Below are positions 39-29,364 of a DNA stretch of 64,000 nt, in pieces. Below the pieces are notes generated by a model, which did no database searches, was not told where the DNA came from, and saw nothing but the letters and a program-made list of their open reading frames with translations. Numbering within the stretch: position 1 is the stretch's first letter; each line of letters opens with the position of its first letter. The translations under genes and the position numbers were made by a program. Source of the DNA: Lachnospiraceae bacterium (lineage in GTDB: Bacteria; Bacillota; Clostridia; Lachnospirales; Lachnospiraceae); assembly GCA_017438305.1 (NCBI GenBank), contig JAFRVX010000114.1, positions 2,602-66,601 on the forward strand, written 5' to 3'.

Positions 39-920
39 ATGGCTGAGCTCGGCATCCCCCGGGAGATGATCCTGAAGGGCGGCGATCTGATGCTGAAAGA
101 GATCGATGAAGCTTTTGAAAAAGAAACCGGGAGTGCTGTTTCTGTGCCCGACGCTTTCGGTACACAGGAACAGATGTCTTCAACGGATACTATCGACATG
201 CAAGACACGCTTCCAGACAGCGAAAAAGAACAGCTGTCTGCTGCCGCCCAAATCGCCCTGCCTGTCGGCACTTCGGAGCTGATCCACCAGTTCTATGATG
301 CCATGGAAAGCCGGGAAAACGGTGCCTGGCGTGACCTCCCGGAGGACATCTGGGAAGCTACGATAGCCTGCTATCCACGCTTTATCAGTGAATACCGCCG
401 TTCCTACGGAACCGACGGCTTCGACCGCTTTTTCTGGACCACCCGTCAGCGGGACGCGAAGCTTTTCCGTATCGGCGCCCTGGAATATGAAATGATCACC
501 GCAGAAAACGGTGATCCGGTGATCTCTGTCCATATCCCTTCTAACGTGGAACTGGTGCCGGAAAGCCTGAATCTTTCCGTGGAAAAGGCCCGGGCATTCT
601 TCAAAGCGTATTTCCCCGAATGGGCCGAAGCACCCATGGTGTGTGAGTCATGGCTGCTTTCTCCCCTGCTTAAAGAATTGCTCCCCGAAAGCTCCCATAT
701 CCTCCTGTTCCAGCGGGCCTTCGACATCCTTGAAACGGACCCGGACAACGAAGATGCCCTGGAATGGGTCTTCCACATTGCCGGCGGCCAGCGAGGCAGC
801 TTTAAGGCTGAAGAGTTGAAGGAAGATACCTCACTCCAGCGGAAGCTGAAAGCGCTGTACCTGAAGGGCATAAAACCCGGAGCCGCCAGAGGTGTGCTTG
901 CGCGAAGGTTCGGGGAATAA
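39..920 (+). CDS. acyltransferase-domain protein (DUF5596 / GNAT-like C-terminal domain type)
   Basis: 293-aa ORF. The pattern LFRIGALEYEM...SVHIPS...CESWLLSP...LFQRAFDI resembles an uncharacterised Firmicutes acyltransferase-domain family. The frame stays open back to base 3, so the start at 39 is provisional. A hairpin terminator follows. Confidence 0.55.
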   Translation: MAELGIPREMILKGGDLMLKEIDEAFEKETGSAVSVPDAFGTQEQMSSTDTIDMQDTLPDSEKEQLSAAAQIALPVGTSELIHQFYDAMESRENGAWRDLPEDIWEATIACYPRFISEYRRSYGTDGFDRFFWTTRQRDAKLFRIGALEYEMITAENGDPVISVHIPSNVELVPESLNLSVEKARAFFKAYFPEWAEAPMVCESWLLSPLLKELLPESSHILLFQRAFDILETDPDNEDALEWVFHIAGGQRGSFKAEELKEDTSLQRKLKALYLKGIKPGAARGVLARRFGE

Positions 921-1052
921 GTGGTGACAGGAGAAACTTGAGACAGGCGTGATAATAATAAGGGATCACTGCAGATAAGCGTAACCGTAAACAGGAAAAT
1001 TACAGACAAACGTAATAGTAAAAAAACACATAGACAATAATAACCATAAACA

Positions 1053-1091
1053 GGGGGCTGACGCACCAGGTGCGTCAGCCCCCATTGTTTT
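1053..1091 (+). terminator. rho-independent terminator of the 39-920 gene
   Basis: GGGGGCTGACGCACC / GGTGCGTCAGCCCCC inverted repeat (1053-1067 / 1069-1083) followed by ATTGTTTT. Confidence 0.7.
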
Positions 1092-1107
1092 GTAAGTTAT
1101 TGCAGGA

Positions 1108-1224
1108 CCTCATCCGGCCCTTCGGGCCACCTTCCCCAGAGGGGAAGGCATATAAGGCTTCCCCTCTGGGGAAGCTGTCTGCCGCAGGCAGACTGATGAG
1201 GCAGCCGCAGGCAGACTGATGAGG
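1108..1224. repeat. double-hairpin palindromic repeat units (one forward, one inverted, one partial)
   Basis: Forward unit 1108-1149: CCTCATCCG + GGCCC TTC GGGCC + CACCTTCCCCAGAGGGGAAGGC. Inverted unit 1157-1201. Partial unit 1202-1224. The same family occurs at 45034-45372, 47634-47760 and 61874-62066. Confidence 0.85.
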
Positions 1225-1228
1225 TTTT

Positions 1229-2098
1229 TTAGTTCTCCACGCAGTCCTTATAGAAGATTCTCTTGCAGTTATAGACCAAAGAGCATCCCTTGTATTCGAA
1301 TCTGCGGGTATTTTCGTCGCAGACATGTTTGGCGTCCCAGCCATGGGGGTTCAGGCCCCAGGTCATGGAGAAGGGATCGGTACTGCCTTCGGCGCCGTTC
1401 ATCAGCTGCTCGCAGGCTTCGATCATGTAATCCAGATAGGCGATGTCAATGGGCGCGCCGTTGTGAGCCGGGCAGATGCAGGTCGCGCGGCCAGCCAACT
1501 TCTTCTTGAGCTCCAGGAGGTTGTCCCGGTAAAGCTCGATGCAGTTATTGCCGGTGGGGCGCATGACCAGGACCTGGCCGCCTTCGAATTCGTCGCCGGT
1601 AAAGACACAGCCGTACTTGGTGTCGAAGTAAACGATGGAGGATTCAGCATGACAGCCGCAGAAATACAGGCATTCGATCTTCCGGTCGCCCAGGTCGATC
1701 ACATCGCCGTCCTTGATGATGGTGGGGGTGTAATCCGCCGGAGCGTTCCAGCCCTGGATGTTGCCGTTCTTCTTCATCGCCTGGATCTCTTCCCAGCATT
1801 TCTCGGTCATGTAGATCGGGCAGTCCTTGAAGAAGGTATTGTTCTCCGTATGGTCGCCGTGGGAGTGGGTGGAAGCCACCACCAGGGGCTTGTCGGTGAC
1901 GCACTGTTCAATATAGCCGCGGATATCCAGATCTTCCTGGAGCGTATCGATGACCATGGCTTTCTCCGAGCCTTCCACCACGTAGGAGCGGGTCGCCGCC
2001 ATATCCATGGTGACCGGATTCAGAAGCCAGGTGTCAGGCTTTACCAGGATCCGCATAAACTGCTTATTCACCGGCCAGTCTTTAAAACTAACACTCAT
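1229..2098 (-). CDS. MBL-fold metallo-hydrolase (paralogue 1 of 3)
   Basis: Start moved to the internal ATG at 2098 (MSVSFKDWPVNKQ), which aligns with the paralogues and follows GAGGAA. Motifs: HSHGDH (HxHxDH), GCH, TGDEFEGGQV, PAHNG. Confidence 0.8.
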   Translation of the reverse strand: MSVSFKDWPVNKQFMRILVKPDTWLLNPVTMDMAATRSYVVEGSEKAMVIDTLQEDLDIRGYIEQCVTDKPLVVASTHSHGDHTENNTFFKDCPIYMTEKCWEEIQAMKKNGNIQGWNAPADYTPTIIKDGDVIDLGDRKIECLYFCGCHAESSIVYFDTKYGCVFTGDEFEGGQVLVMRPTGNNCIELYRDNLLELKKKLAGRATCICPAHNGAPIDIAYLDYMIEACEQLMNGAEGSTDPFSMTWGLNPHGWDAKHVCDENTRRFEYKGCSLVYNCKRIFYKDCVEN

Positions 2099-2102
2099 GC
2101 TA

Positions 2103-2972
2103 TTATTCCTCGCAGTCCTTGTAGAAGATCCTCTTCCTGTTGTAAACGATGGACGTGCCCTTCCACTCCGAACGTCTGACATCTTCGTTGGTCATACGGT
2201 CGATGGAATAACCGTGAGGATTCAGGCCAAAGGTGAAGGAACGGATATCTTCCATGCCTTCGCGTCCGGCCATGATCTGCTCGCAGTTCTCGATCATGTT
2301 GTCCAGGATCTGGATGTCGATGGGGGATCCGTTATGGGGCGGGCAGACCACTGTTGCCCTGCCGGCGATACGGTCGCGAAGCGCCACACAGTTATCCCGG
2401 TAAAGCTCGATGCAGTTATTGCCCCGCTGGCCCATGATCAGCACCTGGCCGCCTTCAAATTCGTCGCCGGTAAACAGGCAGCCGTACTTGAGGTCCAGAT
2501 AAACGATGGAGGAAGCGCTGTGGCAGCCCGCGAATTTGATGCATTCCAGCTGACGGTTGCCCAGATCGATGATATCGCCGTCCTTGATGATGGTGGGCGT
2601 GTAGTTAAGCTTCCACTCCCACTTGCTGCCCGGCCTGGGATTGGCCGCTGATGCCTGGATCTCTTCCCAGGCGATCTCGGTCATATAGATCGTGCAGTCC
2701 GCAAACTGGGAATTGTTCAGGGTGTGGTCGCCATGGGAATGGGTGCAGGCCACGCAGATCTCCTTGCCGGGGAAGTTCTCTTCCACATAGGCTCTTAAAT
2801 CCAGATCCAGATCCGTGGTGTCCATGATGAGGACCTTGTCGTCACCCTCGATAACATGGGGCTGGGACTGGGCATTGTCCATGGTAACACCCTGCAGGAA
2901 CCAGGTCTCCGGCTTTACCAGCCGTCTCATAAACTGTTTATTAACAGGCCAGTCTCTGAAACTAACGCTCAT
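2103..2972 (-). CDS. MBL-fold metallo-hydrolase (paralogue 2 of 3)
   Basis: Internal ATG at 2972 (MSVSFRDWPVNKQ) preceded by AAGGAGG. Same HSHGDH / GCH / TGDEFEGGQV / PPHNG motifs. Confidence 0.8.
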   Translation of the reverse strand: MSVSFRDWPVNKQFMRRLVKPETWFLQGVTMDNAQSQPHVIEGDDKVLIMDTTDLDLDLRAYVEENFPGKEICVACTHSHGDHTLNNSQFADCTIYMTEIAWEEIQASAANPRPGSKWEWKLNYTPTIIKDGDIIDLGNRQLECIKFAGCHSASSIVYLDLKYGCLFTGDEFEGGQVLIMGQRGNNCIELYRDNCVALRDRIAGRATVVCPPHNGSPIDIQILDNMIENCEQIMAGREGMEDIRSFTFGLNPHGYSIDRMTNEDVRRSEWKGTSIVYNRKRIFYKDCEE

Positions 2973-2986
2973 ATCATCCCTCCTTA

Positions 2987-3922
2987 TTAATCCAGGTCCA
3001 GATCTTTTAAGAAGACCCGGTTCCGGTTGTAAACGATGGAAGTGCCCTTCCATTCCGAACGAAGCGCGGTGCCCTTGCCTTTTTCCAGTCTTGCCATGCC
3101 GTCGTTGATCTCGTCGGGATCACGGGTGAAGGGCAGGTTGTGATAGGACTGGGGATTGCGGCCGTAGGACATGGAGCTGACGTCTTCCATGCCGGGGATG
3201 CCGGACATGATGCGCTCGCAGTTCTCGATCATATTGTCCAGGGTCAGCGGATCCAGCGGAGATCCGTTGTGCGGCGGGCAGATGCAGGTGGCTCTTCCTG
3301 CAACGACGTCGCGCAGCTTCACCAGGTTGTCGCGGTAGAATTCCACGGAATTCTTCTTGGAAGCAGCACCGCCCACCAGGACCTGGCCGCCTTCGAATTC
3401 ATCACCGGTGAACAGGCAGCCGTACTTGGTATCCAGGTACGCGGCCGAGGAAGCGCTGTGGCAGCCGTTGAACTCAATGACTTCCAGGCCTCTTCCGCCA
3501 AGGTCGATGACGTCGCCGGGCTTCACGATGGTGGGTTCGTAATTCAGCGGGGTATCCCAGCCGTTCGGCATGCCGGGACGCGGGCGTTTCCGGGATTCCT
3601 GGATCTCTTCCCAGCAGACTTCCGTCATATAGATGGGGCAGCCCTCGAACTGATAGTTGTTGGCGGTATGATCGCCGTGGGAATGGCTGCAGACCACCAC
3701 CAGAGGCTTGTCCGTCACGCATTTTTCCACGTATTCCCGTACGTTGTAGGGAAGGTCCGTGGTATCGATAACAGCGGCGTACTTATCGCCGATCACCACA
3801 TGGGGATGGGGCGCGGCGCAGTCCTCTACGAATCCGTTCAGGATCCAGGTATCGGGCTTGACAAGACGCTTCATGAACTGTTTCTCGATGGGAAGCTCGA
3901 GAACATTGATTTTTTCACTCAT
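2987..3922 (-). CDS. MBL-fold metallo-hydrolase (paralogue 3 of 3)
   Basis: 311 aa, AGGAGGAAATTCATT-ATG. Same zinc-ligand motifs and the shared C-terminal tail SEWKGTSIVYNRNRVF. Confidence 0.8.
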   Translation of the reverse strand: MSEKINVLELPIEKQFMKRLVKPDTWILNGFVEDCAAPHPHVVIGDKYAAVIDTTDLPYNVREYVEKCVTDKPLVVVCSHSHGDHTANNYQFEGCPIYMTEVCWEEIQESRKRPRPGMPNGWDTPLNYEPTIVKPGDVIDLGGRGLEVIEFNGCHSASSAAYLDTKYGCLFTGDEFEGGQVLVGGAASKKNSVEFYRDNLVKLRDVVAGRATCICPPHNGSPLDPLTLDNMIENCERIMSGIPGMEDVSSMSYGRNPQSYHNLPFTRDPDEINDGMARLEKGKGTALRSEWKGTSIVYNRNRVFLKDLDLD

Positions 3923-3994
3923 AATGAATTTCCTCCTGAAAATATAGATTAACTTTATTGTAATGTTTTAAACCCACATTGACAATAACCTTTG

Positions 3995-4034
3995 CAAGGG
4001 TATTTTCCGAATCCTTCAAGGGTATTTTCCGAAT
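3995..4034. promoter_or_regulatory. 18-bp direct repeat x2 (CAAGGGTATTTTCCGAAT) in a divergent control region
   Basis: Identical copies at 3995-4012 and 4017-4034 (period 22 bp), just downstream of a TTGACA hexamer at 3979-3984. They lie between the MBL operon and the HprK-like/PqqD/rSAM operon. Confidence 0.5.
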
Positions 4035-4334
4035 TGGACAGCCTGACTTCCGTTCCGGACCGGGCTTCTGCGGCTGTTCCGGGACTTTAAGACCTTTTTG
4101 TTCAGGAAGATTTCCGCCCTTTTGTCTGTACAAATCAGCGGCCGGATGCTAAAATAAGAAATCTAATCGTTAATTGTATGCAGAAGATCAGGATCGTCCG
4201 TGGTCTTTCAGGCAGGGCTGAGAGAGCGTCTTTCAGACAAGCCAGGCAGATAATCTTTAAGACAGACCGGACTCCTGCCGGGAATTCCTTCATCCGGCAT
4301 AAGTCAGAAGCCGGGGAACAAGAAAAGAGAAAAT

Positions 4335-5207
4335 ATGAATATCGTTCGTTACTACACCATAGGAACCTTTACTTTTTCCCTCTCCTGTCCGGAAGAACTG
4401 CCGGTTCCGGCAAATATGGCCTTATTCGAGCTTCACGAACTTGCCGTTTCGAAGGAGCAGGAACCTTATCTCTATACAGTCTCCTTGACAAAGGGCTTTC
4501 CTCTTCCGTCCGGCTCCCCCGATATCATCCGGGAAGATATGGCGGTCTGGCTCCGGAACGGCCTGGAGACCCGGTATCTGTGGTTTCATCAGCACCGCCA
4601 TGAAGGTCCCTATGCCTGTGTACGGGAAGAGGATTCACGGCACACGGCCGTCTTCATCGATCCCCGGGTCACGGAGGATTTTCTGTATGACACAGTCTTC
4701 CTGTCGGTTCTTGCCTTGGAAAAACATATGATCGGCTGCGATGCCCTGATCCTGCACAGCGCCTACATCGTCCATGAAAACCGGGCCATCCTCTTTACGG
4801 CCCCCGCGGGTACCGGAAAAAGCACCCAGGCAGGTCTCTGGGAAAAGTACCGGGGCGCCTTCCAGGTCAACGGAGACCGGACCCTGCTTCAGAAGATCGG
4901 CGGATGCTGGTATGCCCGGGGCTGGCCGGTGTGCGGTAGTTCTGAGATCTGTCACAATCTGGATACCTCCCTTTATGGCATCGTTGTCCTGAGCCAGGGA
5001 GAAAAGAACGAAGCGGTCAGAAGAGAGGCAGGCAAAGCCTTTCAGGAAATTTATCCCCAGATCACGGTGAACCGCTGGAACAGGGATTTCCAGTTAAAGG
5101 CCATGGATCTTACGGAAGCCCTGCTTCGGGAGATCCCGGTTTATCATCTCTCCTGCACCATATCCGAAGAAGCGGTGGAATGCCTGGAAAAGGTGCTGTT
5201 TCCCTGA
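4335..5207 (+). CDS. HPr kinase/phosphorylase C-terminal-domain-like P-loop protein
   Basis: 290 aa. LHSAYIVHENRAILFTAPAGTGKSTQAGLW is a Walker A motif in the context typical of HprK homologues found in peptide-modification clusters. Confidence 0.6.
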   Translation: MNIVRYYTIGTFTFSLSCPEELPVPANMALFELHELAVSKEQEPYLYTVSLTKGFPLPSGSPDIIREDMAVWLRNGLETRYLWFHQHRHEGPYACVREEDSRHTAVFIDPRVTEDFLYDTVFLSVLALEKHMIGCDALILHSAYIVHENRAILFTAPAGTGKSTQAGLWEKYRGAFQVNGDRTLLQKIGGCWYARGWPVCGSSEICHNLDTSLYGIVVLSQGEKNEAVRREAGKAFQEIYPQITVNRWNRDFQLKAMDLTEALLREIPVYHLSCTISEEAVECLEKVLFP

Positions 5208-5258
5208 AACCGTTCCGCCCGGGATCAACAGACAGCCTATACAAATTCCGGAAAGATC

Positions 5259-5300
5259 CTTACGAACACTGATAAGATTCTTACAAACACTGATAAGATT
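5259..5300. promoter_or_regulatory. 21-bp direct repeat x2 (CTTACNAACACTGATAAGATT)
   Basis: Copies at 5259-5279 and 5280-5300, in the 146-bp gap between the HprK-like gene and the PqqD gene. Confidence 0.45.
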
Positions 5301-5353
5301 CTCCTGAAGCAGATAAACCCTCTGAAATACCAAAAACGAAAGGAAGCCGAAAC

Positions 5354-5692
5354 ATGCCCGGTGAAGCCGCCATTTTCGAAAACATCTCCTGGGACAGTGT
5401 CCTCACGACCAGCCCGGACTACATTTTAAGACAGATCGGCGAGGAGACCATCCTGGTCCCCGTCGTTTCCGAAGGCCCCCTGGCCAATACCATGATGACC
5501 ATGAATGATACCGCCTGCTGGCTGTGGAACTCCTTCGCGAAAGGCGCCTCTTCCCAGGATGTGCTGAAAGCCGCCGTCCGGGAATATGACGACGGCACCG
5601 CGGACCACAAAGCCATTACGGAAGGCGTATACCGGTTCGTCCTGGAAAGCCTTGCCCTGGGAACGCTGATCCTGAAAGAGGACGCTTCATGA
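5354..5692 (+). CDS. PqqD-family protein (RiPP recognition element type)
   Basis: 112 aa. ILRQIGEETILVPV...MNDTACWLWN...SQDVLKAAVREY fits the PqqD pattern. SD is AAGGAAG. Its stop overlaps the next start (ATGA). Confidence 0.7.
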   Translation: MPGEAAIFENISWDSVLTTSPDYILRQIGEETILVPVVSEGPLANTMMTMNDTACWLWNSFAKGASSQDVLKAAVREYDDGTADHKAITEGVYRFVLESLALGTLILKEDAS

Positions 5693-6819
5693 ATCCTGCG
5701 GAAGGCGCCGCAACGGAAGAACAGCGGCTGCTGTTTCTTGGCGCGGAACGGAAAATGCCCCTCAACGGCAGTCTGGAGCTGTCTCCTCTCTGCAACATGG
5801 ACTGCGAAATGTGCTACGTCCGGCTGTCTAAGGAAGAAGCTTCCGCCTGCGGCCGCCTGAAGACCGCCGATGAATGGCTTCAGCTGGCGGAACAGCTGAA
5901 GGAAGCCGGCGTGCTCTTTCTGCTGCTTACCGGCGGAGAGCCACTTTTATATCCAGACTTTAAAAGGCTTTTTGTCTCCCTCCGGAAGATGGGCTTTATC
6001 CTGACCGTCAATACCAACGGAACCCTTCTGGACGAAGCCTGGGCCGATTTTTTCAGGGAAAACCGGCCGCGCCGCATCAATCTGACCCTCTACGGGACTT
6101 CTGACCTTGCTTATCAGAAGCTCTGCCATTATCCCGACGGCTTTGAAAAAGCGCTGAAGTCAGCGCGTTATCTTAAAGACCGGGGAACCGACGTCCGCTT
6201 CAGCTACAGCCTTACCCGGGAGAATCTTTCCTCCCTTAACGCTTTTTTCGATCTTTCCGAAGAGCTCGGCATCCCCTGCAGCGTCGATACCTATATGATG
6301 CCTGTCACCAGGGAACGGAACAGACCCTATGCCCTGGCTTCCCGGGTCTCTCCGGAAGAGGCCGCAGCCTGCACCCTTGAGATCAGAAGAAGAGCCTGCG
6401 GCTCACCGGAAAAGTTTGCCGGATACTGCAGAGATACCTTGTCGTCTCTGGAAAAAGCGGCAGCTTATATTAATGCGCATCCTTCTTCCAAAGAGCCTGT
6501 GCCCTCCTCCTGTCTTGCGGGAAGATGTTCCTTCTCCGTAAGCTGGCTGGGGACCCTGCATCCCTGCGTCATGCTGACGCACCCGGAGATCAACGTTTTC
6601 GAAACGCCCTTTGCAGAAGGCTGGAAGATCCTTACGGAAGGCATGGGATCCGTGTATCTGAACGGGACCTGCGCTTCCTGTGAAAAGCGCCTGATCTGCG
6701 AGTTCTGTCCCGCCGCCGCCCTGTCGGAGACCGGAGATATAAACAAAGCTCCCGAATACCTGTGCCGGTATTCGGAAGCCCTGGTAAAACTTATGAAAGA
6801 AATCCTGTCTGATCTCTGA
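5689..6819 (+). CDS. radical SAM / SPASM-domain protein (peptide-maturase type)
   Basis: 376 aa. CNMDCEMC (CX3CX2C), LLLTGGEPLL, and a C-terminal Cys cluster CLAGRCS...HPC...CASCEKRLICEFC typical of SPASM auxiliary Fe-S domains. Confidence 0.8.
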   Translation: MNPAEGAATEEQRLLFLGAERKMPLNGSLELSPLCNMDCEMCYVRLSKEEASACGRLKTADEWLQLAEQLKEAGVLFLLLTGGEPLLYPDFKRLFVSLRKMGFILTVNTNGTLLDEAWADFFRENRPRRINLTLYGTSDLAYQKLCHYPDGFEKALKSARYLKDRGTDVRFSYSLTRENLSSLNAFFDLSEELGIPCSVDTYMMPVTRERNRPYALASRVSPEEAAACTLEIRRRACGSPEKFAGYCRDTLSSLEKAAAYINAHPSSKEPVPSSCLAGRCSFSVSWLGTLHPCVMLTHPEINVFETPFAEGWKILTEGMGSVYLNGTCASCEKRLICEFCPAAALSETGDINKAPEYLCRYSEALVKLMKEILSDL

Positions 6820-6854
6820 TCGGGGAGTTTCCGCCCTGACCTGGAAGTTCATCG

Positions 6855-7178
6855 TCAGGCACCTGTCTCCGTTTCTGTTTTTTCGTCCGCCTGACCATTT
6901 CCTTCGGACCCGGCTTTTTCATCCACGATCATTTCGTTCCCGGTTTTTTCACTCCCGGATCCTTCAATGACATTCAGACCGGCCTGCTTCTCTTTCTGGA
7001 GCAGGCTGGCCTTTCTTTTTTCTTCCTGCGCTTTCAGACGCTTTTTCTGCACCAGGATGATCCCTACAGCGGCGCAGAGGATGACCAGGCCGATCACCGC
7101 CAGCACCGGAAGAAGCGCCAGAAGGATCTCTGCCGGACCTGGAACAAAAATGACGTCGCCCAAAATCATTCTCATCAT
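6855..7178 (-). CDS. small single-pass membrane protein, acidic/lysine-rich tail
   Basis: 107 aa. One hydrophobic helix (LLALLPVLAVIGLVILCAAVGIILV) followed by a charged low-complexity tail. Weak SD. Confidence 0.45.
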   Translation of the reverse strand: MMRMILGDVIFVPGPAEILLALLPVLAVIGLVILCAAVGIILVQKKRLKAQEEKRKASLLQKEKQAGLNVIEGSGSEKTGNEMIVDEKAGSEGNGQADEKTETETGA

Positions 7179-7195
7179 CTTTCTTTACCTGTCTT

Positions 7196-7307
7196 TCTGT
7201 CTGTTTGCGGAACGGTCTGTTCGCGGAACGGTCTGTTTGCAGACCAGTCGGTTTACAGACCAGTCCGTTTACAGACCAGTCTGTTACGGAACTGTCTGTT
7301 TACAGAA
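7196..7307. repeat. short tandem repeats (GCGGAACGGTCTGTT x2; GTTTACAGACCAGTC x2-3)
   Basis: Read directly. GTTTACAGACCAG at 7251-7263 and 7267-7279. The variant GTTTGCAGACC at 7235-7245. CTGTCTGTTTACAGA at 7292-7306, spanning the stop codon of the gene 7300-8217. Confidence 0.8.
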
Positions 7308-8217
7308 TATAATTTCTGAGATACTTCGTACTGATCCGGATAGCCCGCTTTACATCCTCGGGGCTTCCCTGGTAGGCTTCGTCCTCCACTTCAATGCAGG
7401 CAAAGCCTTCGTAGCGGATATCATTCAGAGCGGAAATGTATTTTCCGAAATCGACGTTTCCCAGGCCCGGGAGCTTGGCTGTCATATACTGCACGGGATA
7501 AGCCATAATGCCCATGTCGTCCAGCTTCTCTTTATACAGCTTCACGTCCTTCATATGCACATGGAAGATCCGGCCCTTAAACTCATAGATTGGTTTTATA
7601 TAGTCGATCATCTGCCAGATGAAATGGGACGGATCGTAATTCAGGCCCAGGTTTCTGGAGGGCAGGATCTCGAAGACCTGCCGCCAGATGGCCGGCGTCG
7701 ACATCAGGTTTGTGCCGCCGGGCCACTGATAGGCGCCGAAAAGCATGGGGCAGTTTTCGATGGCGATCTTCACATCGGCCTTTTCCGCGCATTCCAGGAT
7801 CGGATTCCAGACCTCCGCCACGTGCTTAAGATTTTCTTCTACAGTTTTGTTCTGATCCCTTCCGATAAAGGTGCTGACCAGGCCGACGCCCAGCTCCTTC
7901 GCTGCCAGGATCATGTTTTTCAGGTGACGGACGACGGCTGCCTGCTTTTCCGGATCCGGATTCATGGGATTCGCAAAATAGGTCAGGGCGGAAAGAACAA
8001 TGCCCCTGTCTTTGGCATAGCTTATCACGTGCTCCTTATAAGCGGCATCCTCCAGCACCCGTTCCGCGTCAACGTGGCAGACCGCGTAGCCGGATCCGGC
8101 TTCTTCCTTCGGCCAGGAACCGGCCTCGATGCATTCCAGACCCGTTTCACGGGCAAAGTCGATAAGTTCTTCAAAAGTCATGGCACCGGCTATGGTGCTT
8201 ACCAGTCCGAGTTTCAT
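7300..8217 (-). CDS. sugar phosphate isomerase/epimerase (xylose-isomerase-like TIM barrel)
   Basis: 305 aa. ELIDFARETGLECIE...HVHMKD...IEVED pattern of the AP-endonuclease-2 / TIM-barrel family. Confidence 0.7.
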   Translation of the reverse strand: MKLGLVSTIAGAMTFEELIDFARETGLECIEAGSWPKEEAGSGYAVCHVDAERVLEDAAYKEHVISYAKDRGIVLSALTYFANPMNPDPEKQAAVVRHLKNMILAAKELGVGLVSTFIGRDQNKTVEENLKHVAEVWNPILECAEKADVKIAIENCPMLFGAYQWPGGTNLMSTPAIWRQVFEILPSRNLGLNYDPSHFIWQMIDYIKPIYEFKGRIFHVHMKDVKLYKEKLDDMGIMAYPVQYMTAKLPGLGNVDFGKYISALNDIRYEGFACIEVEDEAYQGSPEDVKRAIRISTKYLRNYIL

Positions 8218-8487
8218 AGATCAAGTTCCTTTCTCGTAAAAACATTAACTTTTCGACGCTGAATAATGGGTCAGACATTCAGTGACTCAACCCTGTTCCA
8301 TTCTCCTCCGCTTTCGTCAGCCTTTGAGCCGGGCCGGAAATCATACTGAGCCTGCCCGGACTGTCCAGGATCATCCCCGGGCTTTTCCTCTCCTTGCAGA
8401 AACGTCTGACTTATGGTAAGATTATACAACATATGAGCTGTTGACCGCAAGACGGAAAACAGATGTGTCTTTCATCAGAAAAAGGAT

Positions 8488-10467
8488 GTGTCTTCCATGA
8501 GATACCAGATCAAACACGCGACAGTTAAATATGACGATACGACCATTCTCCAGGATGTCAATTTCGAGATCCGGGATTCGGAGAAGATCGCCGTTGTGGG
8601 CAGAAACGGGTGCGGGAAGACCACACTCCTGAAACTCATGACCGGAGATGTGGAAATGGCCAATCCCACCAGCGATCTGGATACCGGGATCTTCATGTCC
8701 GGAAAGCAGGAGATCGGGTATCTTAAGCAGATCAGCTTTGAGGACGGCTCCATCCCCGTGGAGGAGGAGATCAAAAAGGTCTTCGCCCCCATCTTCGAGA
8801 CCGAAAAGCGCATGCGGGAGATCGAGGAACAGCTGAAGGATCACGACCGGCAGCTCATGGGCGAATATGATTTCCTGCAGAAAAAGATGGAGGCCCTGAA
8901 CGGCTATACCTGGAAGCAGGACATGGAGATCATGTTCCAGAAGTTCGGCTTCGACCTGGAGGACCTGAAGCGGCCCATCGGCACCTTTTCCGGCGGACAG
9001 CAGACCAAGGTGGCTTTCATCAAGCTGCTCCTCTCCCGTCCGGATATCATGCTCCTGGACGAGCCCACGAACCACCTGGACCTGCCCACCATCGAATGGC
9101 TGGAAGGGTATCTTAAATCCTATGACAAGGCGGTGGTGATCGTCTCCCATGACCGGATGTTCCTGGACAATGTGGCGGACGTGACCTATGAGATCGAATA
9201 TCACCGCATCAAGCGTTATCCCGGCAATTATACCGCCTTCATGAAGCAGAAGGAGCTGGATTTCAAGAAGCAGGAAAAGGATTACGAAGAGCAGCAGAAG
9301 GAGATCGCCCGGCTGACGGAATGGATCGAAAAATGGAAAAACACGCCCTCCAAGGTGGCGGCCACCCGGTCCAAACGTATGGTCATCGAGCATATGGTGA
9401 AGATCGAAAAGCCCCAGCGCTTCGATACGAAGACCTTCAAAGCGCTGTTCACCCCGAATTTTGAAAGCTATTCCGACGTACTGGACGTAAAAAAGCTGGT
9501 CATCGGTTATGACGAGCCCCTGGCGGAGGTGACCTTCCATCTGGGCAAGCGGGAACGGCTGGCGGTCATCGGTGAAAACGGAAAGGGCAAATCCACGCTG
9601 TTAAAGACGCTGGTGGGGGAGATCCCGCCCCTGGACGGCACCGCCCGTTTCGGCGCCAACGTCCAGTTCGGCTACTACGACCAGCAGAAGGCCGTCGTTA
9701 ACGACGGGGATCCCTATGAGAGCATTCTGGACAACTTCTGGAACGCCTATCCGAATCTTCTGAGGGAAGATGTCCGGTCCGCCCTGGGCGCTTTCCAGTT
9801 TTCCGGAGAAGACGTGGAAAAAGCCATGGGCCAGCTTTCCGGGGGCGAAAAGGTACGGCTGGAACTGTGCAAGATGTTCTACGCAAAGCCCAACCTGCTG
9901 ATCCTGGACGAGCCCACCAACCATATGGACATCATGGGCAAGGAAGCCCTGGAAAACATGCTGAAGGAATACACCGGCACGGTGCTCTTCGTTTCCCATG
10001 ACCGGTATTTTATCCGCCAGATCGCCACCGGCGTCCTGGAATTCAATAAGGACGAGGTCCGTCAGTATAAAGGGACCTACGAGGAGTATCTGGAGGAAAA
10101 AGACAAACGGGAAAAAGGCCTGATCACGGATCTTTTCAGCGAAAAGAAAAAGCCCAAAGCCCCGGAACCGACGCTGGACGACGTCTTCGACAAAAAGACC
10201 TATTACAATCCCGGGAAGATCCGCTCCCGCCTGGAGACCCAGCTGGGCACCCTGGAAAGAAAGCTTGCCGAAAGTGAAGAAAAGGCCGACGACCTGAAGA
10301 TGCAGCTGGCCGATCCGGACATCGCCTCGGATTACGAGAGGCTTATGGAACTGCAGGAAAAGCTCGCCTTTGAAGAGCATCAGCAGGAAACGCTTCTGGA
10401 ACGCATGCTGGAAGCAGAGACCGAGCTCCACGAACTGGAGGAACAGATGGCGAAAAAGCCTTCCTGA
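8488..10467 (+). CDS. ABC-F family ATPase (two NBDs, C-terminal coiled-coil)
   Basis: Walker A GRNGCGKTT and GENGKGKST. Signatures LSGGQQ and LSGGEK. No membrane domain. The GTG at 8488 or the ATG at 8497 could be the start. Confidence 0.85.
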   Translation: MSSMRYQIKHATVKYDDTTILQDVNFEIRDSEKIAVVGRNGCGKTTLLKLMTGDVEMANPTSDLDTGIFMSGKQEIGYLKQISFEDGSIPVEEEIKKVFAPIFETEKRMREIEEQLKDHDRQLMGEYDFLQKKMEALNGYTWKQDMEIMFQKFGFDLEDLKRPIGTFSGGQQTKVAFIKLLLSRPDIMLLDEPTNHLDLPTIEWLEGYLKSYDKAVVIVSHDRMFLDNVADVTYEIEYHRIKRYPGNYTAFMKQKELDFKKQEKDYEEQQKEIARLTEWIEKWKNTPSKVAATRSKRMVIEHMVKIEKPQRFDTKTFKALFTPNFESYSDVLDVKKLVIGYDEPLAEVTFHLGKRERLAVIGENGKGKSTLLKTLVGEIPPLDGTARFGANVQFGYYDQQKAVVNDGDPYESILDNFWNAYPNLLREDVRSALGAFQFSGEDVEKAMGQLSGGEKVRLELCKMFYAKPNLLILDEPTNHMDIMGKEALENMLKEYTGTVLFVSHDRYFIRQIATGVLEFNKDEVRQYKGTYEEYLEEKDKREKGLITDLFSEKKKPKAPEPTLDDVFDKKTYYNPGKIRSRLETQLGTLERKLAESEEKADDLKMQLADPDIASDYERLMELQEKLAFEEHQQETLLERMLEAETELHELEEQMAKKPS

Positions 10468-21846: not shown

Positions 21847-21920
21847 GGACCGGCCTGTTATTACCAGTTCATGGACCGGCCTGTTTTTACCAGGTCAGGA
21901 ACAGTCCTGTTTCTTACCAC
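21847..21920. repeat. 26-bp tandem repeat x about 2.7 (GGACCGGCCTGTTNTTACCAGNTCA)
   Basis: Copies at 21847-21872 and 21873-21898, plus a degenerate third copy that runs into the stop codon of the CPBP gene. Confidence 0.75.
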
Positions 21921-23035
21921 GTCTCTGTATAAGGCTGTTCCTGAAGATTTTCCTCGTTATGGAAGAACGGCACCCGTCTTCCCAGAAACAGTGCTGCTGC
22001 CGCAAATACCATAAACAGCACCGCGTAAATGAAAAGATACTTTTCCGGATCCAGGATCCCTCCCAGGAACATGCCCAGGAAATTATTGAACATGTGGCAG
22101 AGGATGCTGGGGATCACGGAATTATACTTATACCCGATAAAGCCCCACAGAAGGCCCATGGGAAGCACATAGATGCCCTGAATGGGATTCATATGGAAGA
22201 TGCTGAAAAGGACGCCGCTTATGATCACGCAGCCCGCCAGCCCGAAGACTCTTCTGGAACGTTGGAGGATGATCCCCCGCATGGCCAGTTCTTCACAGAT
22301 GGGCGCCAGAAGCACCGCCGCCAGAAGCCCCAGGATCTCGTTCTTTCCCAGGGTCAGGTACATGGTTTCATTTAAAGCTTCGGCCTCATACGGGAAGAGG
22401 CCCGCAGCGATGATCTCCAGCATGATGGCCAGAGAAAAACACGCAATATTCGAGGTCAGCAGGAAGAGAAGGCCTGCCGGGTTCTTAAGCTTTGGCCCCA
22501 CCGGTTCATACCGCCCTTCCAGTCTGGCCTTCCGCACATATCCGCGGTAATACCAGATCAGTACAAAAATGGTTCCTGCAACTACCGAAATGATCTCGAC
22601 CCGGGCCAGAAGGGAAGTCGATGTCAGCAGTTCATTATAGGCATTGATAATTGCTTCGTAGTCCCCGCCGTTTTCCATCACCAGCCGGAAAAGAGACGGC
22701 AGGATCCCCGCGGCGCCTGCCGCGGACTGCACCAGGATCACGGCAATCATCACCCAGACACAGAAGAAAACCGTCCCGATCTTTCCGGGCTGAGCCTTGT
22801 AGGCCTGCCGGTAAACCGCCCGGTCCGATACCTGCGGCTGGGGCGTATAAGTCCTGGCCGGCTCATCTGTCCTGTTTATCGTATAAGGGATCTGCGTTAC
22901 CTCTTCACGATCCGTTCCGGTTCCCGTATAAGGGATCTGAGACGCTTTTTCGCGATCCGTTCCGGTTCCCGTATAAGGGATCTGAGATACTTCTTCGCGA
23001 TCTGTTCCGGTTTCAGCGGGGCCATATTCACTCAT
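21914..23035 (-). CDS. CPBP-family intramembrane metalloprotease (CAAX/Abi type) with a repetitive N-terminus
   Basis: Start at MSEYGPAE (GGAGG-5 nt-ATG). CEELAMRG (EExxxR), FSIFH and HMFNN motifs. Three 15-aa repeats TGTDREEVSQIPYTG at the N-terminus. Confidence 0.75.
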   Translation of the reverse strand: MSEYGPAETGTDREEVSQIPYTGTGTDREKASQIPYTGTGTDREEVTQIPYTINRTDEPARTYTPQPQVSDRAVYRQAYKAQPGKIGTVFFCVWVMIAVILVQSAAGAAGILPSLFRLVMENGGDYEAIINAYNELLTSTSLLARVEIISVVAGTIFVLIWYYRGYVRKARLEGRYEPVGPKLKNPAGLLFLLTSNIACFSLAIMLEIIAAGLFPYEAEALNETMYLTLGKNEILGLLAAVLLAPICEELAMRGIILQRSRRVFGLAGCVIISGVLFSIFHMNPIQGIYVLPMGLLWGFIGYKYNSVIPSILCHMFNNFLGMFLGGILDPEKYLFIYAVLFMVFAAAALFLGRRVPFFHNEENLQEQPYTETW

Positions 23036-23085
23036 AAAAAACCTCCGAAGTCTGTTATGTTCTCTCATCATAACAGACTTCGGAG
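23036..23085 (-). terminator. rho-independent terminator whose 3' arm contains the SD of the CPBP gene
   Basis: 18-bp arms at 23068-23085 and 23041-23058 (CCTCCGAAGTCTGTTATG / CATAACAGACTTCGGAGG in mRNA sense) with a 9-nt loop. TTTTT follows, then ATG directly. Confidence 0.7.
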
Positions 23086-23244
23086 GGATGTGCAAGAATT
23101 ATCCGGCATCAGGTTAGTGTCAGCTCCGGATTTCCTCTCACCGGCGGTTCATTAATCCTTTACTCTTTGCCGGGCAGAAACGGCCGGATATCTTTATAGG
23201 GAATTAGCAGGTTCAATCGCGGAAGATATGTTTTATCTGTCTGT

Positions 23245-23880
23245 TTACAGACTGTCTAAGAGATTTCTGATGATCTCCAATGCCTGATTTACAGCAGCAT
23301 CTCTTTCTTCTGATGAAATAATAAGATTATTACTGCTTTTCTTGAAGTAATAGTTGATCACGTACTTGAGTTCTCCCTGTTTTATTGTTCCAAATAGAAT
23401 ATCAGGTTGTAACGGATCTTTTTCTATATAGGTAACACAATACTCCATAGTTTTATCATCAGCAGTAAGAAGTTCTTTCCCAAACCGGGTAATCAGATTG
23501 CTCGCCTGCTGATATTGTTCGTGAATATCATTAAAGTATATATCTACGGATATATTGTCCCCATTCTCCAGTCCGGCATACTCAGACAAATACAGCCATG
23601 TGTTTCTGTCTGACACATAACCGGTGCCATCCAGAGGAAGGAACAAGGTGAATTGAAGATTTTTCAATTCATCCTCATGTTTGATATACCATTGAATGAG
23701 GCAATCTTCTCCAAAAAGTCTCAGAGCTTTTTCAGGATCTTTTTCTGTATACTCAGATATATTTTCTGTAGGTGATGGACCATGTCTGTGAGAAGATTCA
23801 AACCAGATAACGCCAATTCCCAAACAGCCTGATACAACCAGTACAATTACCAGTATCGTAAGATTTTTTCTTTTATTCAT
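23245..23880 (-). CDS. lipoprotein / membrane-anchored protein of unknown function
   Basis: 211 aa. MNKRKNLTILVIVLVVSGC has a lipobox-like VSG-C. AT-rich coding sequence. Confidence 0.55.
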   Translation of the reverse strand: MNKRKNLTILVIVLVVSGCLGIGVIWFESSHRHGPSPTENISEYTEKDPEKALRLFGEDCLIQWYIKHEDELKNLQFTLFLPLDGTGYVSDRNTWLYLSEYAGLENGDNISVDIYFNDIHEQYQQASNLITRFGKELLTADDKTMEYCVTYIEKDPLQPDILFGTIKQGELKYVINYYFKKSSNNLIISSEERDAAVNQALEIIRNLLDSL

Positions 23881-23941
23881 ATTATAGTCCTTATTTATTT
23901 GCTATATCCTTGGTTTAGAGACTTCTGATTTGTTTTCTGGT

Positions 23942-25234
23942 TTAATCAGTTCCTTCCTCCTGCTCCTTTTCGGATGGGACTGCAAAGGACTGTATGAGCT
24001 CGCTTTCATCCCCGTACCAAAGGATCTTATAAGGACATTCCTTTCCATGAATACTTCCAATTTCCTTTTTATCAAAGATCAGAAGCCCCCACCGCTGACT
24101 TCCTTTTTCATTATAGACAACATATTGATAGTCTTTACCGCCTATCGGGATTTCCCATGCATATCCTATGTCCGGGATCTTATATTCATCCACAATGTTG
24201 AAGTCTGTATCGTAAACTACACATTTTCTTTCCCTCTCGGGGAATTCCCGGTTAATACTCGTGTTGTCAAGGTAAAAGTAATTCCCATCAGACAGGGGTG
24301 TATTATATTGTTCCACAGATGAAAGGACTGTTCCTTTTGATCCTCCGTAAACATCAGATTCATAGATCTCTGTCAGGTATATTGAGTTCTCCATTCCGTT
24401 CCGGGGCTCTCTGTATAGTTTTCCGTCAAATAATACAAGGTCATCAAACTCAAGGTCAGTTTTTTCTATTTCTCCTGTACGCATATTGTAGACCTGAGAT
24501 AATATGTTTGGCCCGTTTATCATTGTGAACCAGACATAATCACCCAGGGCCCGCAACGGGAGACATCCATGCTGTAAGCCGTCATAGTAGATTTCTTCTT
24601 CTGTCATGATTTTCTTTTCAAGGTCGATTCTGTTAAAACATGTTTTTGCTGCAATTCCCTCTTCTGAAGTAACAAACACCGAAGAATAATAGAACAGTGT
24701 ACCTCTATGAATTAGCGGAAACGCCATATCCACTGTTCTCCATATCATTTCTTTTGAAGAACCGTCCGTGGATACTTTGACGACACATGTTTTTCGGTTT
24801 TCAGGATCATTATCTAACCTATCATAACAGATATAAAGATCATCCTTATACAGCATCAGACTTATAGGAGCAAATCTCCCATTCTCATCATAAAAGGCAT
24901 AGTCAAGACAGGCATTACACTCCCGTTTCTTTTCAGGATCCCTTTCCTCATCATGAAGACAGTTTGCCTTTGAACAAAGAGGGATAATCGCACCTCCTTG
25001 CCTGTAAGTATATAAGAAATCATTATGAACAAAGATACAGCCTTCTTCAATCTCCTGGATTTTCGGGTAGATTAGATTCGGCGTCATCATATAACACTGC
25101 CAATCCGTTTCAAAGTTGTAGTCATCCTGAAAAACCATCTTTCTCTCCGTTGAAGAGGAGCTTTCGGTTGCTCCTGTAAAATCTTTACTGCTGCCGCATC
25201 CGGAGAAAAGGATGATTCCAAGTAAGAAAGCCAT
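23942..25234 (-). CDS. large lipoprotein, paralogue A (possible beta-propeller, DUF5050-like by eye)
   Basis: Start placed at MAFLLGIILFSGCGSS (lipobox); the track ORF extends to 25318 inside the upstream gene. Paralogous to 26647-27945. Confidence 0.6.
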   Translation of the reverse strand: MAFLLGIILFSGCGSSKDFTGATESSSSTERKMVFQDDYNFETDWQCYMMTPNLIYPKIQEIEEGCIFVHNDFLYTYRQGGAIIPLCSKANCLHDEERDPEKKRECNACLDYAFYDENGRFAPISLMLYKDDLYICYDRLDNDPENRKTCVVKVSTDGSSKEMIWRTVDMAFPLIHRGTLFYYSSVFVTSEEGIAAKTCFNRIDLEKKIMTEEEIYYDGLQHGCLPLRALGDYVWFTMINGPNILSQVYNMRTGEIEKTDLEFDDLVLFDGKLYREPRNGMENSIYLTEIYESDVYGGSKGTVLSSVEQYNTPLSDGNYFYLDNTSINREFPERERKCVVYDTDFNIVDEYKIPDIGYAWEIPIGGKDYQYVVYNEKGSQRWGLLIFDKKEIGSIHGKECPYKILWYGDESELIQSFAVPSEKEQEEGTD

Positions 25235-25265
25235 TCTCAAAGGGAATGTCCGGCTGAATAAGTGC

Positions 25266-25688
25266 TTAACCCTGAGAGCCACTGCTTGTTTCCCCTGTCC
25301 ATGTGCCTGCTGTTCCAATCACTTTATGTGTCGCAATGGAACCTGCGGCAGAGTAGGGATATGGAATAGATATTGTGACGCTGACCGGATCAATATCTAC
25401 CCCACTGTTTGTTGCAGGAGTATAGTTATACCTGAAAACATGACTGTCATAGGCTGCATAAGCAATTAAAGAAACCTCTTTAGTCGTATGAAGTTTGTGT
25501 TTCGTATTAGCGCTTACAGACGAAGGCGTATAACCGGTGGAACCTGATGCGTAGGAACCATCAATCATATACGACGACTGCACAAAACTCGCGGCATTCA
25601 CGGGGGTGGACGTAAATAATCCGGCTGCCATAATCACCGCACCGGCAATACCAGCTGTTTTCTTTATGAAACTTCTTATTCCTTCCAT
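25266..25688 (-). CDS. small Sec-secreted protein, paralogue A (140 aa)
   Basis: Signal peptide ...STPVNA/ASFVQ. The mature part is Ser/Thr/Tyr/Gly-rich. Paralogous to 27938-28360. Confidence 0.65.
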   Translation of the reverse strand: MEGIRSFIKKTAGIAGAVIMAAGLFTSTPVNAASFVQSSYMIDGSYASGSTGYTPSSVSANTKHKLHTTKEVSLIAYAAYDSHVFRYNYTPATNSGVDIDPVSVTISIPYPYSAAGSIATHKVIGTAGTWTGETSSGSQG

Positions 25689-25869
25689 ACCTAAAAACCC
25701 TTTTCTTCTTAAAGATACTGGTACGAATCAATTAAAACTTTCTAGATCGCCGTACTATACGACAGACTCTCTTTGACCTGTTACCAACCATTGTTAACAC
25801 AGAACAGATTATATGCAATTATTGAACTATTTGATAGACTCTGGTATTACCCTCCTTCTCAATGATGGA

Positions 25870-26529
25870 TTACTTCCCGTTAACTTCAACTTTTCCCCGG
25901 CATCGTTCTAAATATAAGTATTCAACTATCGGTTTGGACACCGGATCTGTATCTTCGGCATCGGCATCCGGTGACCAGGTCTGACTCTGACCTTCAACCA
26001 GGATCTCCGCCCTTACTCCTATAAATTCATCCGCACCTTCCGGAAGCTCTATCTCCAATAACACAGGTTCGAAAATATTCCTGCTTGTCACCGTCTGTTT
26101 CCTTACATAGTTATCCCCTTCTTTTGTATAATAACCATATATCGTTGCAACAGCAGTATCACTATATCCTATAAGAACCTGGCCGTGTTCTTCATAATGC
26201 GATGTGTCAGGCATATCTAGGATCACTTCCACAGATGCTTTATCACGTGACAAGTTTACCTCGCCTTCAATCCCCGGTACATGATCAGAATACCTGTTTT
26301 TTTTCTTAAGCTCCCCTGTAAACAATATATCCTCAGGCTCTGTATATTCTATAAATGGCTCCATGTTCAGCGAAGTTTTTGGAATGGTGGAAGAATCCCG
26401 TTTAGCATAATCAGAAATGACAATGAGCGCGCCGTTATTCTCCATGTTTCCGCAGCCTGATAACAGCATCGCTCCAAGCAAGAGGATAACTCCAATGTTA
26501 ATAAATATACTGTTCCTGTTTTTTTGCAT
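25870..26529 (-). CDS. lipoprotein of unknown function
   Basis: Start at MQKNRNSIFINIGVILLLGAMLLSGCGN (lipobox LLSG-C). 219 aa. Confidence 0.55.
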   Translation of the reverse strand: MQKNRNSIFINIGVILLLGAMLLSGCGNMENNGALIVISDYAKRDSSTIPKTSLNMEPFIEYTEPEDILFTGELKKKNRYSDHVPGIEGEVNLSRDKASVEVILDMPDTSHYEEHGQVLIGYSDTAVATIYGYYTKEGDNYVRKQTVTSRNIFEPVLLEIELPEGADEFIGVRAEILVEGQSQTWSPDADAEDTDPVSKPIVEYLYLERCRGKVEVNGK

Positions 26530-26646
26530 AACGGTCACTCTTTCCTCTGGGTGCACCCATACATCCGGCCAATTCCATTTATAACATTCTGGGAATACAC
26601 AGCAACTCGTGGAGTTATTGCTGCCTGTACCCTCCGTTCTCTGGTG

Positions 26647-28360: not shown

Positions 28361-28415
28361 GATCAGCTTTCTCCTTTGCAAAGGTCCGTTGCACATTAAT
28401 TTGTTTTCCTCCTGT

Positions 28416-28445
28416 ATTATAAACATCACCCATAAACAGTGTCAA
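28416..28445 (-). promoter_or_regulatory. sigma-A type promoter TTGACA-N18-TATAAT for the secreted-protein/lipoprotein operon
   Basis: Minus-strand reading GCGTATTGACACTGTTTATGGGTGATGTTTATAATACAGG. The -35 is at 28440-28445 and the -10 at 28416-28421. Confidence 0.65.
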
Positions 28446-28450
28446 TACGC

Positions 28451-28519: not shown

Positions 28520-28597
28520 ACAGTTGCAGGATCACCAAAAGATGTGTATCCTTACAACCATAACAGCTATGAATAATCTCCCCTTGAGGTTTTATCT

Positions 28598-29332: not shown

Positions 29333-29364
29333 GCGATTATTACGCGATTGATTGGAGATTGATT

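Follow-up and report, generated by a model that had tools for sequence, protein, structure and literature searches.

The question raised by this locus is what three genes of peptide-maturation type are doing where none of the partners expected of them is encoded nearby. They lie within a 64-kb stretch (the window) of a 70,163-base source contig from a Lachnospiraceae bacterium, and encode a P-loop protein, a recognition element for ribosomally synthesised and post-translationally modified peptides (RiPP recognition element, RRE) and a radical S-adenosylmethionine (SAM) enzyme:

4335-5207, forward strand: ScmC-family P-loop protein (290 aa) with a fold of the HPr kinase/phosphoenolpyruvate (PEP) carboxykinase (HprK/PEPCK) type, a putative serine kinase
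5354-5692, forward strand: discrete PqqD-type RRE (112 aa; Pfam PqqD)
5689-6819, forward strand: radical SAM enzyme (376 aa; PF04055) with a SPASM-type C-terminal domain

An earlier sequence-only reading of this DNA had described three co-directional genes in which the stop codon of the RRE gene overlaps the start codon of the radical SAM gene (ATGA). Both the three open reading frames (ORFs) and the overlap (...TTCATGAAT...) are seen in the sequence, and the genes are rather likely to constitute one operon-like module. On balance, the trio is taken here to act in trans, as the stand-alone maturase core of a system for leader-bearing small proteins (termed PRE below) that is widespread in Clostridia and experimentally uncharacterised.

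Domains and family assignments of the trio

The first protein carries the Walker A motif APAGTGKST at residues 156-164, and precomputed Pfam assignments place it, together with all 120 listed homologues, in PF27840 (ScmC; PF27840.1). The NCBIfam scan returned HprK_rel_A alone (20.6 bits against a cut-off of 200, E 1.9e-4, over 30 residues), and the NCBIfam ScmC model did not match at E<=0.01, such that by this test the protein is not a ScmC equivalog. Pfam gave no match to Hpr_kinase_C at the family threshold, and a 14-sequence profile of the family found no chain in the PDB, so a sequence-level tie to HprK was not obtained. The AlphaFold2 model built from 71 sequences has a mean predicted local distance difference test score (pLDDT) of 95.1 and a predicted template modelling score (pTM) of 0.91. 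The top 50 matches of this model in a Foldseek search of the PDB comprise two families alone, ATP- or GTP-dependent PEP carboxykinases and HPr kinase/phosphorylases (3tqf, 1knx, 1ko7, 1kkl and 1kkm), at a probability of 1.0 and TM-scores of 0.3-0.5; these families have one P-loop fold in common. The residues invariant in the ScmC family, including H141, G161-K162, T164, N179-G180-D181 and W197-P198-x-C200-G201, are all found in the window protein. The 'HprK-like' label of the earlier reading is therefore supported at the level of predicted fold and motif, and the loss of catalytic residues that might have undone it is not observed, as the Walker A motif and the invariant Asp of the NGD motif are both kept. 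From the modelled fold we infer that the protein may act as a kinase.

The second protein scores above the gathering threshold of the PqqD model (PF05402, 25.0 bits against 23.4), confirming its earlier assignment as a PqqD-type RRE. It is 50-53% identical to the RREs of three complete loci in other genomes (L004, L005 and L007), which adjoin 'MKTWTMP' PRE genes, and this likeness suggests that it has the same leader specificity.

The third protein matches PF04055 with 90.6 bits, and its CX3CX2C motif (C35, C39 and C42) is invariant in 23 family members. Eight further cysteines towards the C-terminus (C275, C280, C293, C328, C331, C337, C340 and C359) are invariant in the same 23-member alignment, in the layout CX12GX4C ... 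CX2CX5CX2C ... C, which is a pattern of SPASM type. The Pfam SPASM model itself gave no match to the protein at E<=0.01, and full-length alignments to the AhbD, PqqE and ScmE models extend to residues 353-364. The earlier call of a radical SAM/SPASM enzyme thus stands, with the full SPASM cysteine set present. The highest-scoring NCBIfam models are AhbD, NirJ2, NirJ and PqqE, all of them matched below cut-off, and all scores fall far short (AhbD 97 against 500, PqqE 67.9 against 381, anaerobic sulfatase maturase (anSME) 44 against 349, and ScmE and ScmF 66.9 and 47.6 against 400). In the PDB, sequence similarity is highest to SuiB (3e-9) and SkfB, both RiPP maturases, with MoaA, PqqE and anSME ranking next. 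Judged by its sequence, the enzyme falls within the SPASM group and outside any named subfamily. Taken together, the three domain calls bear out the RiPP-type logic, an RRE joined to a radical SAM/SPASM enzyme and an HprK-like protein, which had been proposed for the trio.

Related loci and their presumed substrates

A scan of one genome per species found that at least 560 species genomes encode a relative of the ScmC-like protein, within the Lachnospiraceae, the Oscillospiraceae and their allies. The carriers named include Mediterraneibacter, Blautia, Dorea, Faecalicatena, Fusicatenibacter, Sellimonas, Merdimonas, Coprococcus, Anaeromassilibacillus, Hominenteromicrobium and members of the Oscillospiraceae. 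The ScmC-like protein has 1619 homologues, and the radical SAM enzyme has thousands, at about 50-56% identity, in gut metagenomes and metagenome-assembled genomes (MAGs) of Lachnospiraceae. ORFs were called in 89 related loci (L001-L089) and classified with phmmer and with hidden Markov models (HMMs) built from the first loci; neighbourhood frequencies were then counted over the 43 genome loci flanked by 8 kb or more on either side. The search for a conserved neighbouring ORF that the sequence-only reading had proposed revealed the PRE family, present at 39 of these 43 loci, as are a radical SAM gene and an RRE gene. Genes for an MsbA-like ABC exporter (33 loci), a SipW-like S26 peptidase (30), an Ig-like protein (28), a ParA-like protein (27), CpsB (23) and NTP_transf_5 (21) are also common. 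One of the four loci scored as lacking PRE, L016, does contain a divergent member.

The usual order begins with [NTP_transf_5] - PRE - radical SAM - RRE / RRE - PRE - radical SAM - ScmC, and continues after ScmC with the ABC exporter, the S26 peptidase, the CpsB phosphatase, the Ig-like protein and two ParA/AAA_31 proteins resembling bacterial tyrosine (BY) kinases. Relatives normally carry between one and four PRE genes, and the S26 protein resembles signal peptidase I of the archaeal or SipW type (TIGR02228, E 4e-7). In the nearest relatives of the window trio (L004, L005, L007 and L011, 51-56% identity) the order is ScmC, RRE, radical SAM, with PRE genes directly downstream.

Many loci contain two sub-modules with different types of PRE, as at L001, where NTP_transf_5 - PRE (...HPNRS) - radical SAM - RRE at 1112-4683 is followed by RRE - PRE (...WETAKS) - radical SAM - ScmC at 7160-9978; at L001-L003 an insertion sequence (DDE_Tnp_1) separates the two. 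At L009 the radical SAM gene (1828-3345) encodes a 505-aa protein containing the radical SAM core twice, to which the window enzyme aligns at residues 14-175 and 174-501. This locus has an 83-aa PRE, and no separate RRE was detected in it.

The PRE proteins are 83-152 aa long, are matched by no Pfam or NCBIfam model and are all named 'hypothetical protein' in their sources. The short-peptide substrate implied by the earlier reading is therefore not what the relatives encode. Their N-terminus follows the pattern M-K-K-x-[W/Y]-x-x-P-x-x-x-V-x-x-F-x-A-N-E-Y-V-A-A-C, within which the Pro, Phe and Cys are invariant among 20 diverse members, while the body of the protein is variable and splits into subfamilies. 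The final residue is Ser in 87 of 93 unique sequences, most commonly in the endings ...TAKS (19), ...PNRS (18), ...PNHS (9) and ...PNAS (7), and this is the sole conserved Ser of the family. An AlphaFold2 prediction for one member suggests a disordered segment at residues 1-29 and a beta-rich remainder; its pLDDT of 60 is too poor for a fold search.

These neighbourhoods bear directly on whether the radical SAM protein is instead an enzyme of cofactor biosynthesis or enzyme maturation, such as an AhbD/NirJ-like heme enzyme, a PqqE-like enzyme or an anaerobic sulfatase maturase, beside which the other two genes would be incidental. The identity of the top NCBIfam models, and the presence of MoaA, PqqE and anSME among the PDB matches, could be read in this way. 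However, no sulfatase-maturase or cofactor model reaches its cut-off, even the best (AhbD) lying far below it, the closest PDB relatives are RiPP maturases, the gene is translationally coupled to that of the RRE, and its relatives adjoin leader-bearing PRE genes at nine-tenths of the loci counted, with no heme, pyrroloquinoline quinone (PQQ) or sulfatase genes adjacent to the trio. Model scores and gene content thus contradict this explanation, which is very improbable.

A second feature of the related loci is their setting. Across L001-L089 (for instance L001 12569-17137 and L005 79-4749), the ScmC and radical SAM genes nearly always adjoin a fixed block encoding a CpsB-type tyrosine phosphatase, a Bact_surface_Ig-like protein and two ParA/AAA_31 proteins (BY-kinase-like, with weak Wzz similarity), and genes for LytR_cpsA_psr, Bac_transf and glycosyltransferase proteins are often close by. 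The fixed block and the nearby capsule-type genes suggest that the system is functionally tied to the regulation of capsule or exopolysaccharide (EPS).

A probable maturase core without linked partners

The absence of a precursor, protease and exporter noted by the sequence-only reading is correct for the copy in the window, and not for the system, as the relatives normally carry all three. N-terminal and full-length HMMs of PRE gave no match better than E>1 over the 2158 six-frame segments of the window, and scans by regular expression and for ORFs with [WYF]xxP and a C-terminal Ser likewise found no PRE-like gene. Searches of the same 64 kb with the relatives' components (tblastn and phmmer) detected no S26 peptidase, NTP_transf_5, CpsB, Ig-like or ParA-like protein, and the ABC matches are to generic ABC proteins only, at about 26% identity or less, the best of them at 50.3-54.1 kb. 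The 413-nt region upstream of the trio and the 147-nt internal spacer were considered as sites of an overlooked precursor; this was rejected, the alignment with a relative (L090) being rich in indels and containing no conserved ORF. A search of positions 3800-7400 for riboswitches or other RNAs in Rfam gave no credible match (best E 0.38).

Two further samples contain the same arrangement of the trio. The first, L090, is a 2.6-kb contig of MAG GCA_017425425.1 with 94.7% nucleotide identity, against which the dN/dS of the window genes is 0.18 for ScmC, 0.065 for the RRE and 0.15 for the radical SAM enzyme, at dS of 0.09-0.16. The second, L091, is a contig from another sample that is 99.7% identical to the window and has the trio in the same adjacency to the metallo-beta-lactamase (MBL)-fold genes described below. 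The ScmC gene of L091 is split; a frameshift was considered and rejected, since the interruption is a scaffold gap marked by a run of Ns. All residues invariant in the respective families are retained in the window ScmC and radical SAM proteins. Given the low dN/dS, the repetition of the arrangement in L091 and the conservation of the promoter-like region in L090, sequence comparison indicates that the trio is maintained by purifying selection. The contigs carrying the cluster mates of the window ScmC are all 3.9 kb or shorter, and a metagenome scan for the wider context of this lineage found no relative closer than 59%.

This evidence of selection bears on the possibility that the trio is a functionless remnant of a complete locus, the partners of which were lost by rearrangement. 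The absence of every usual partner from the window, the position of the trio among unrelated metabolic and transport genes, and the rarity of such a state, PRE being wanting in only about 4 of the 43 fully flanked relatives and the window therefore atypical, would all be expected of a remnant. Against this, the three ORFs are intact with dN/dS well below one, each family-invariant residue is retained, and both the promoter-like site and the translational coupling are preserved. A remnant is accordingly thought unlikely.

As the trio is intact and under purifying selection, action in trans on PRE encoded elsewhere is the most likely arrangement. Gene content, folds, motifs, conserved neighbourhood and selection are observed; the chemical steps of such a pathway, which we infer by analogy, would be as follows. 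The PqqD-type RRE would recognise the N-terminal leader of a PRE of about 130-150 aa by its [W/Y]xxP motif and present the protein to the radical SAM/SPASM enzyme, which would modify the core. The likeliest target would be the invariant Cys that directly follows the leader (...NEYVAAC), with a crosslink of thioether type, the most common SPASM chemistry on Cys, as one conceivable product. The RRE would also present the PRE to the ScmC/HprK-fold protein for phosphorylation of a Ser, the nearly invariant C-terminal Ser being the best candidate, as in paeninodin. At complete loci the SipW-like signal peptidase would then remove the leader, NTP_transf_5 may elaborate the phosphate, and the MsbA-like ABC pump would export the product, in a capsule or EPS setting. 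For the trio in the window, the PRE, S26 peptidase, NTP_transf_5 and ABC pump would be supplied from elsewhere in the genome.

The immediate surroundings of the trio contain the following features:

1229-3922, reverse strand: three tandem paralogous MBL-fold genes (317, 316 and 311 aa; HSHGDH motif)
3985-3957, reverse strand: promoter-like site for the divergent MBL gene (consensus scan)
3979-4006, forward strand: promoter-like site TTGACA, 16 nt, TATTTT (consensus scan), about 330 nt 5' of the first trio gene
3995-4012 and 4017-4034, forward strand: two exact 18-nt direct repeats CAAGGGTATTTTCCGAAT, with a spacing of 22, overlapping the -10 region
5265-5281 and 5286-5302, forward strand: two copies of AACACTGATAAGATTCT in the spacer between the ScmC and RRE genes, 21 nt from start to start

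The promoter-like region at 3979-4006 is conserved in L090, as are both CAAGGGTATTTTCCGAAT repeats, with one change in each. By sequence, the trio probably has its own regulated promoter, and the repeats are a candidate operator that may have a regulatory role. The tandem AACACTGATAAGATTCT duplication is present as one copy in L090 and two in the window, so that it appears to be recent, strain-specific slippage; it is probably a product of replication rather than a functional element.

The MBL ORFs, which overlap end to end as mechanically listed and are divergent from the trio, have only weak Pfam matches to Lactamase_B and SoxH-like models and no sequence relative in the PDB. The NCBIfam PqqB model matched none of them. 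The other flanking genes encode a GNAT-like protein, a small membrane protein, a sugar-phosphate isomerase-like TIM barrel, an ABC-type ATPase with two ATP-binding domains and a 494-aa transporter-like membrane protein. At 21914-30657, a gene for an Rce1-like CAAX protease is followed by five ORFs without a Pfam match (23.2-28.0 kb), a LytTR response regulator (28598-29332) and a GHKL-type, AgrC-like histidine kinase (29359-30657), a layout resembling an agr-like quorum-sensing or bacteriocin-immunity locus.

The MBL genes raise the further possibility that in this lineage the trio has been recruited to another, unrecognised substrate, distinct from the PRE system: either an undetected small ORF or the divergent MBL-fold triplet. 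Their adjacency to the trio is kept in the independent sample L091, the two units share the 413-nt divergent promoter region with its conserved direct repeat, purifying selection acts on the trio with no known partner nearby, and the combination of MBL, PqqD and radical SAM/SPASM proteins loosely recalls PqqB, PqqD and PqqE. However, no MBL homologue is found near any of the 89 related loci, and L091 is so nearly identical to the window that it adds no evolutionary depth. The MBL proteins lack the [W/Y]xxP leader, the context of the invariant Cys and the C-terminal Ser, the indel-rich upstream region holds no ORF conserved between strains, and a motif scan of all ORFs in the window produced no plausible alternative substrate. 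The similarity of the window RRE to those beside 'MKTWTMP' PRE genes also argues for the customary substrate. Recruitment to a new one is accordingly considered improbable.

Comparison with known systems

The closest described counterpart was reported from Bacilli by Popov et al. (Nat Commun 2026, PMC13381572) as the family of linear polyphosphorylated peptides (LPP). LPP clusters sit in capsule loci and encode a SipW-like peptidase (LppS), an RRE (LppB), an HprK-like kinase (LppK), an NTP-transferase (LppN) and an MsbA-like exporter (LppD); the precursors are 35-200 aa long with the leader YxxPxVLxHQxIxFETxxS, LppK polyphosphorylates Ser3 of the core, and LppS cuts after FET with the assistance of the RRE (PMC13381572). 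The clostridial system has all of the LPP accessory components along with the capsule or EPS context: a discrete PqqD-type RRE and an HprK-like P-loop protein (in Clostridia a putative kinase) are found in both, and the S26 peptidase of the relatives is homologous to LppS (E 1e-11). The similarity of the window RRE to LppB itself is not significant (E 0.057). By contrast, the clostridial system adds one or two radical SAM/SPASM enzymes, occurs in Lachnospiraceae and Oscillospiraceae rather than the Bacilli in which LPP were studied, and has in its substrates the motif WxxPxxxVQxFEANEYVAAC, with the invariant Cys and C-terminal Ser in place of Ser3. Precursors of both lie in the 35-200-aa range, and the two leaders have only [W/Y]xxPxV and F-E-[A/T] elements in common. 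The window copy differs further in lacking the peptidase, NTP-transferase, exporter and precursor. Nowhere in the paper on LPP or its supplements are radical SAM enzymes mentioned, and a few Lachnospiraceae peptidases fall into minor clusters of its network (PMC13381572). The statement in the sequence-only reading that no nameable class fits the implied chemistry of the trio thus needs revision, since the relatives combine the accessory set of LPP and paeninodin (PMC13381572) with radical SAM enzymes, and the P-loop protein already belongs to Pfam ScmC. On the present analysis, the clostridial system would be best described as an LPP-like pathway with radical SAM chemistry on protein-sized substrates.

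Three relatives, L010, L013 and L015, combine ScmC with NTP_transf_5 and ABC genes or with an S26 peptidase, and within 10 kb have neither a radical SAM gene nor an RRE or recognisable PRE, a hint that LPP-like variants free of radical SAM enzymes exist in Clostridia. No LPP-like precursors were found beside these three loci.

Several points weigh against the interpretation of the trio as a PRE-maturing core acting in trans. The window contains no PRE, peptidase, nucleotidyltransferase or adjacent exporter, and the claim of trans action is drawn from this absence together with the evidence of selection. The tie of the ScmC-like protein to HprK consists of the fold, the P-loop and a weak 30-residue HMM match only, and the occurrence of ScmC-like genes without radical SAM genes at L010, L013 and L015 means that the two are not obligately coupled. 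The phosphorylated Ser of LPP is core residue 3, whereas the equivalent position of PRE is Tyr, Phe, His or Cys, which makes the assignment of the PRE phosphosite uncertain. Furthermore, the PRE leader is like that of LppA only in the [W/Y]xxPxV motif (4 bits). The literature search returned no experimental study of the radical SAM-containing system, no paper joining radical SAM with HprK, PqqD, RiPP or Lachnospiraceae, and none on the SynChlorMet cassette discussed below.

With these points considered, a broader proposal is advanced tentatively. PRE may constitute an undescribed class of ribosomally synthesised, leader-guided proteins of about 110 core residues, modified by radical SAM enzymes at the invariant Cys and phosphorylated, perhaps also glycosylated, at the C-terminal Ser, cleaved by a SipW-like peptidase, exported by an ABC transporter and wired to capsule and tyrosine-kinase loci across the gut Clostridia species counted above, with the trio in the window persisting as a stand-alone core that serves in trans. 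If this is true, the class would be a protein-sized hybrid of LPP and sactipeptide/ranthipeptide logic, and its maturation a very common, unstudied pathway of Lachnospiraceae and Oscillospiraceae in human and animal guts. Radical SAM chemistry and Ser phosphorylation, with possible elaboration, would be joined on protein-sized substrates linked to genes of capsule or EPS regulation. The LPP family, described only in 2026, would be extended to a new enzyme class and phylogenetic range, Pfam ScmC would gain a function and PRE would become a defined substrate family. As its substrate is missing, the window copy is less informative taken alone; its main importance is the evidence it gives for retention of the maturase core without linked substrates.

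The precursors of paeninodin and pseudomycoidin receive a phosphate on their C-terminal Ser from the kinases PadeK and PsmK, and a hexose is added by the nucleotidyltransferase PsmN (PMC6993621). The clostridial system shares with these an HprK-family kinase, although for ScmC this role is putative, a precursor ending in Ser, an NTP_transf_5-type enzyme and an RRE-dependent [W/Y]xxP leader. HprK-like kinases, discrete RREs and NTP_transf_5 being typical of paeninodin-like clusters (PMC6993621, PMC13381572), the trio could in principle be a degenerate lasso cluster in which a kinase and a B1-type RRE have outlived the cyclase and B2 protease. However, neither an Asn-synthetase-like cyclase nor a transglutaminase-like (B2) protease is present among the Pfam-scanned ORFs at 39-8217 of the window or the called genes of L001-L009, the class-defining enzyme is replaced by a radical SAM/SPASM enzyme, and the substrates exceed lasso precursors about fivefold in length. 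Here too gene content and model scores contradict the explanation, the chance of which is negligible.

The SynChlorMet cassette, defined only bioinformatically, comprises in TIGRFAMs the HprK-distant P-loop protein ScmC, the PqqD-like ScmD and the PqqE-like radical SAM/SPASM proteins ScmE and ScmF, and is the bioinformatic antecedent of the present system. The likeness lies in the P-loop ScmC, matched in the window through Pfam, the PqqD homologue and the PqqE-like radical SAM/SPASM enzyme. The differences are that the window has one radical SAM gene where the cassette has two, that the ScmE and ScmF cut-offs are not reached and the NCBIfam ScmD model has no match in the trio at E<=0.01, and that PRE substrates, a SipW-like peptidase, an exporter and linkage to capsule loci are further elements of the clostridial system.

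SuiB, SkfB and the sactipeptide and ranthipeptide synthases resemble the window enzyme in the CX3CX2C motif, the SPASM cysteines and RRE-guided recognition of a leader. The differences are that the trio has its RRE as a separate protein and includes a kinase-fold partner, that its presumed substrates are 83-152 aa long and that no equivalog model is reached. For substrates of this size a precedent is quinohemoprotein amine dehydrogenase. Its substrate family is unrelated, its pathway has neither a kinase-like protein nor a discrete RRE, and the product is a Gram-negative periplasmic enzyme. Nevertheless, the radical SAM/SPASM enzyme QhpD makes Cys thioethers in QhpC, a leader-bearing protein of about 100 aa that next passes to a dedicated peptidase for processing and to an ABC transporter, much as is envisaged for PRE.

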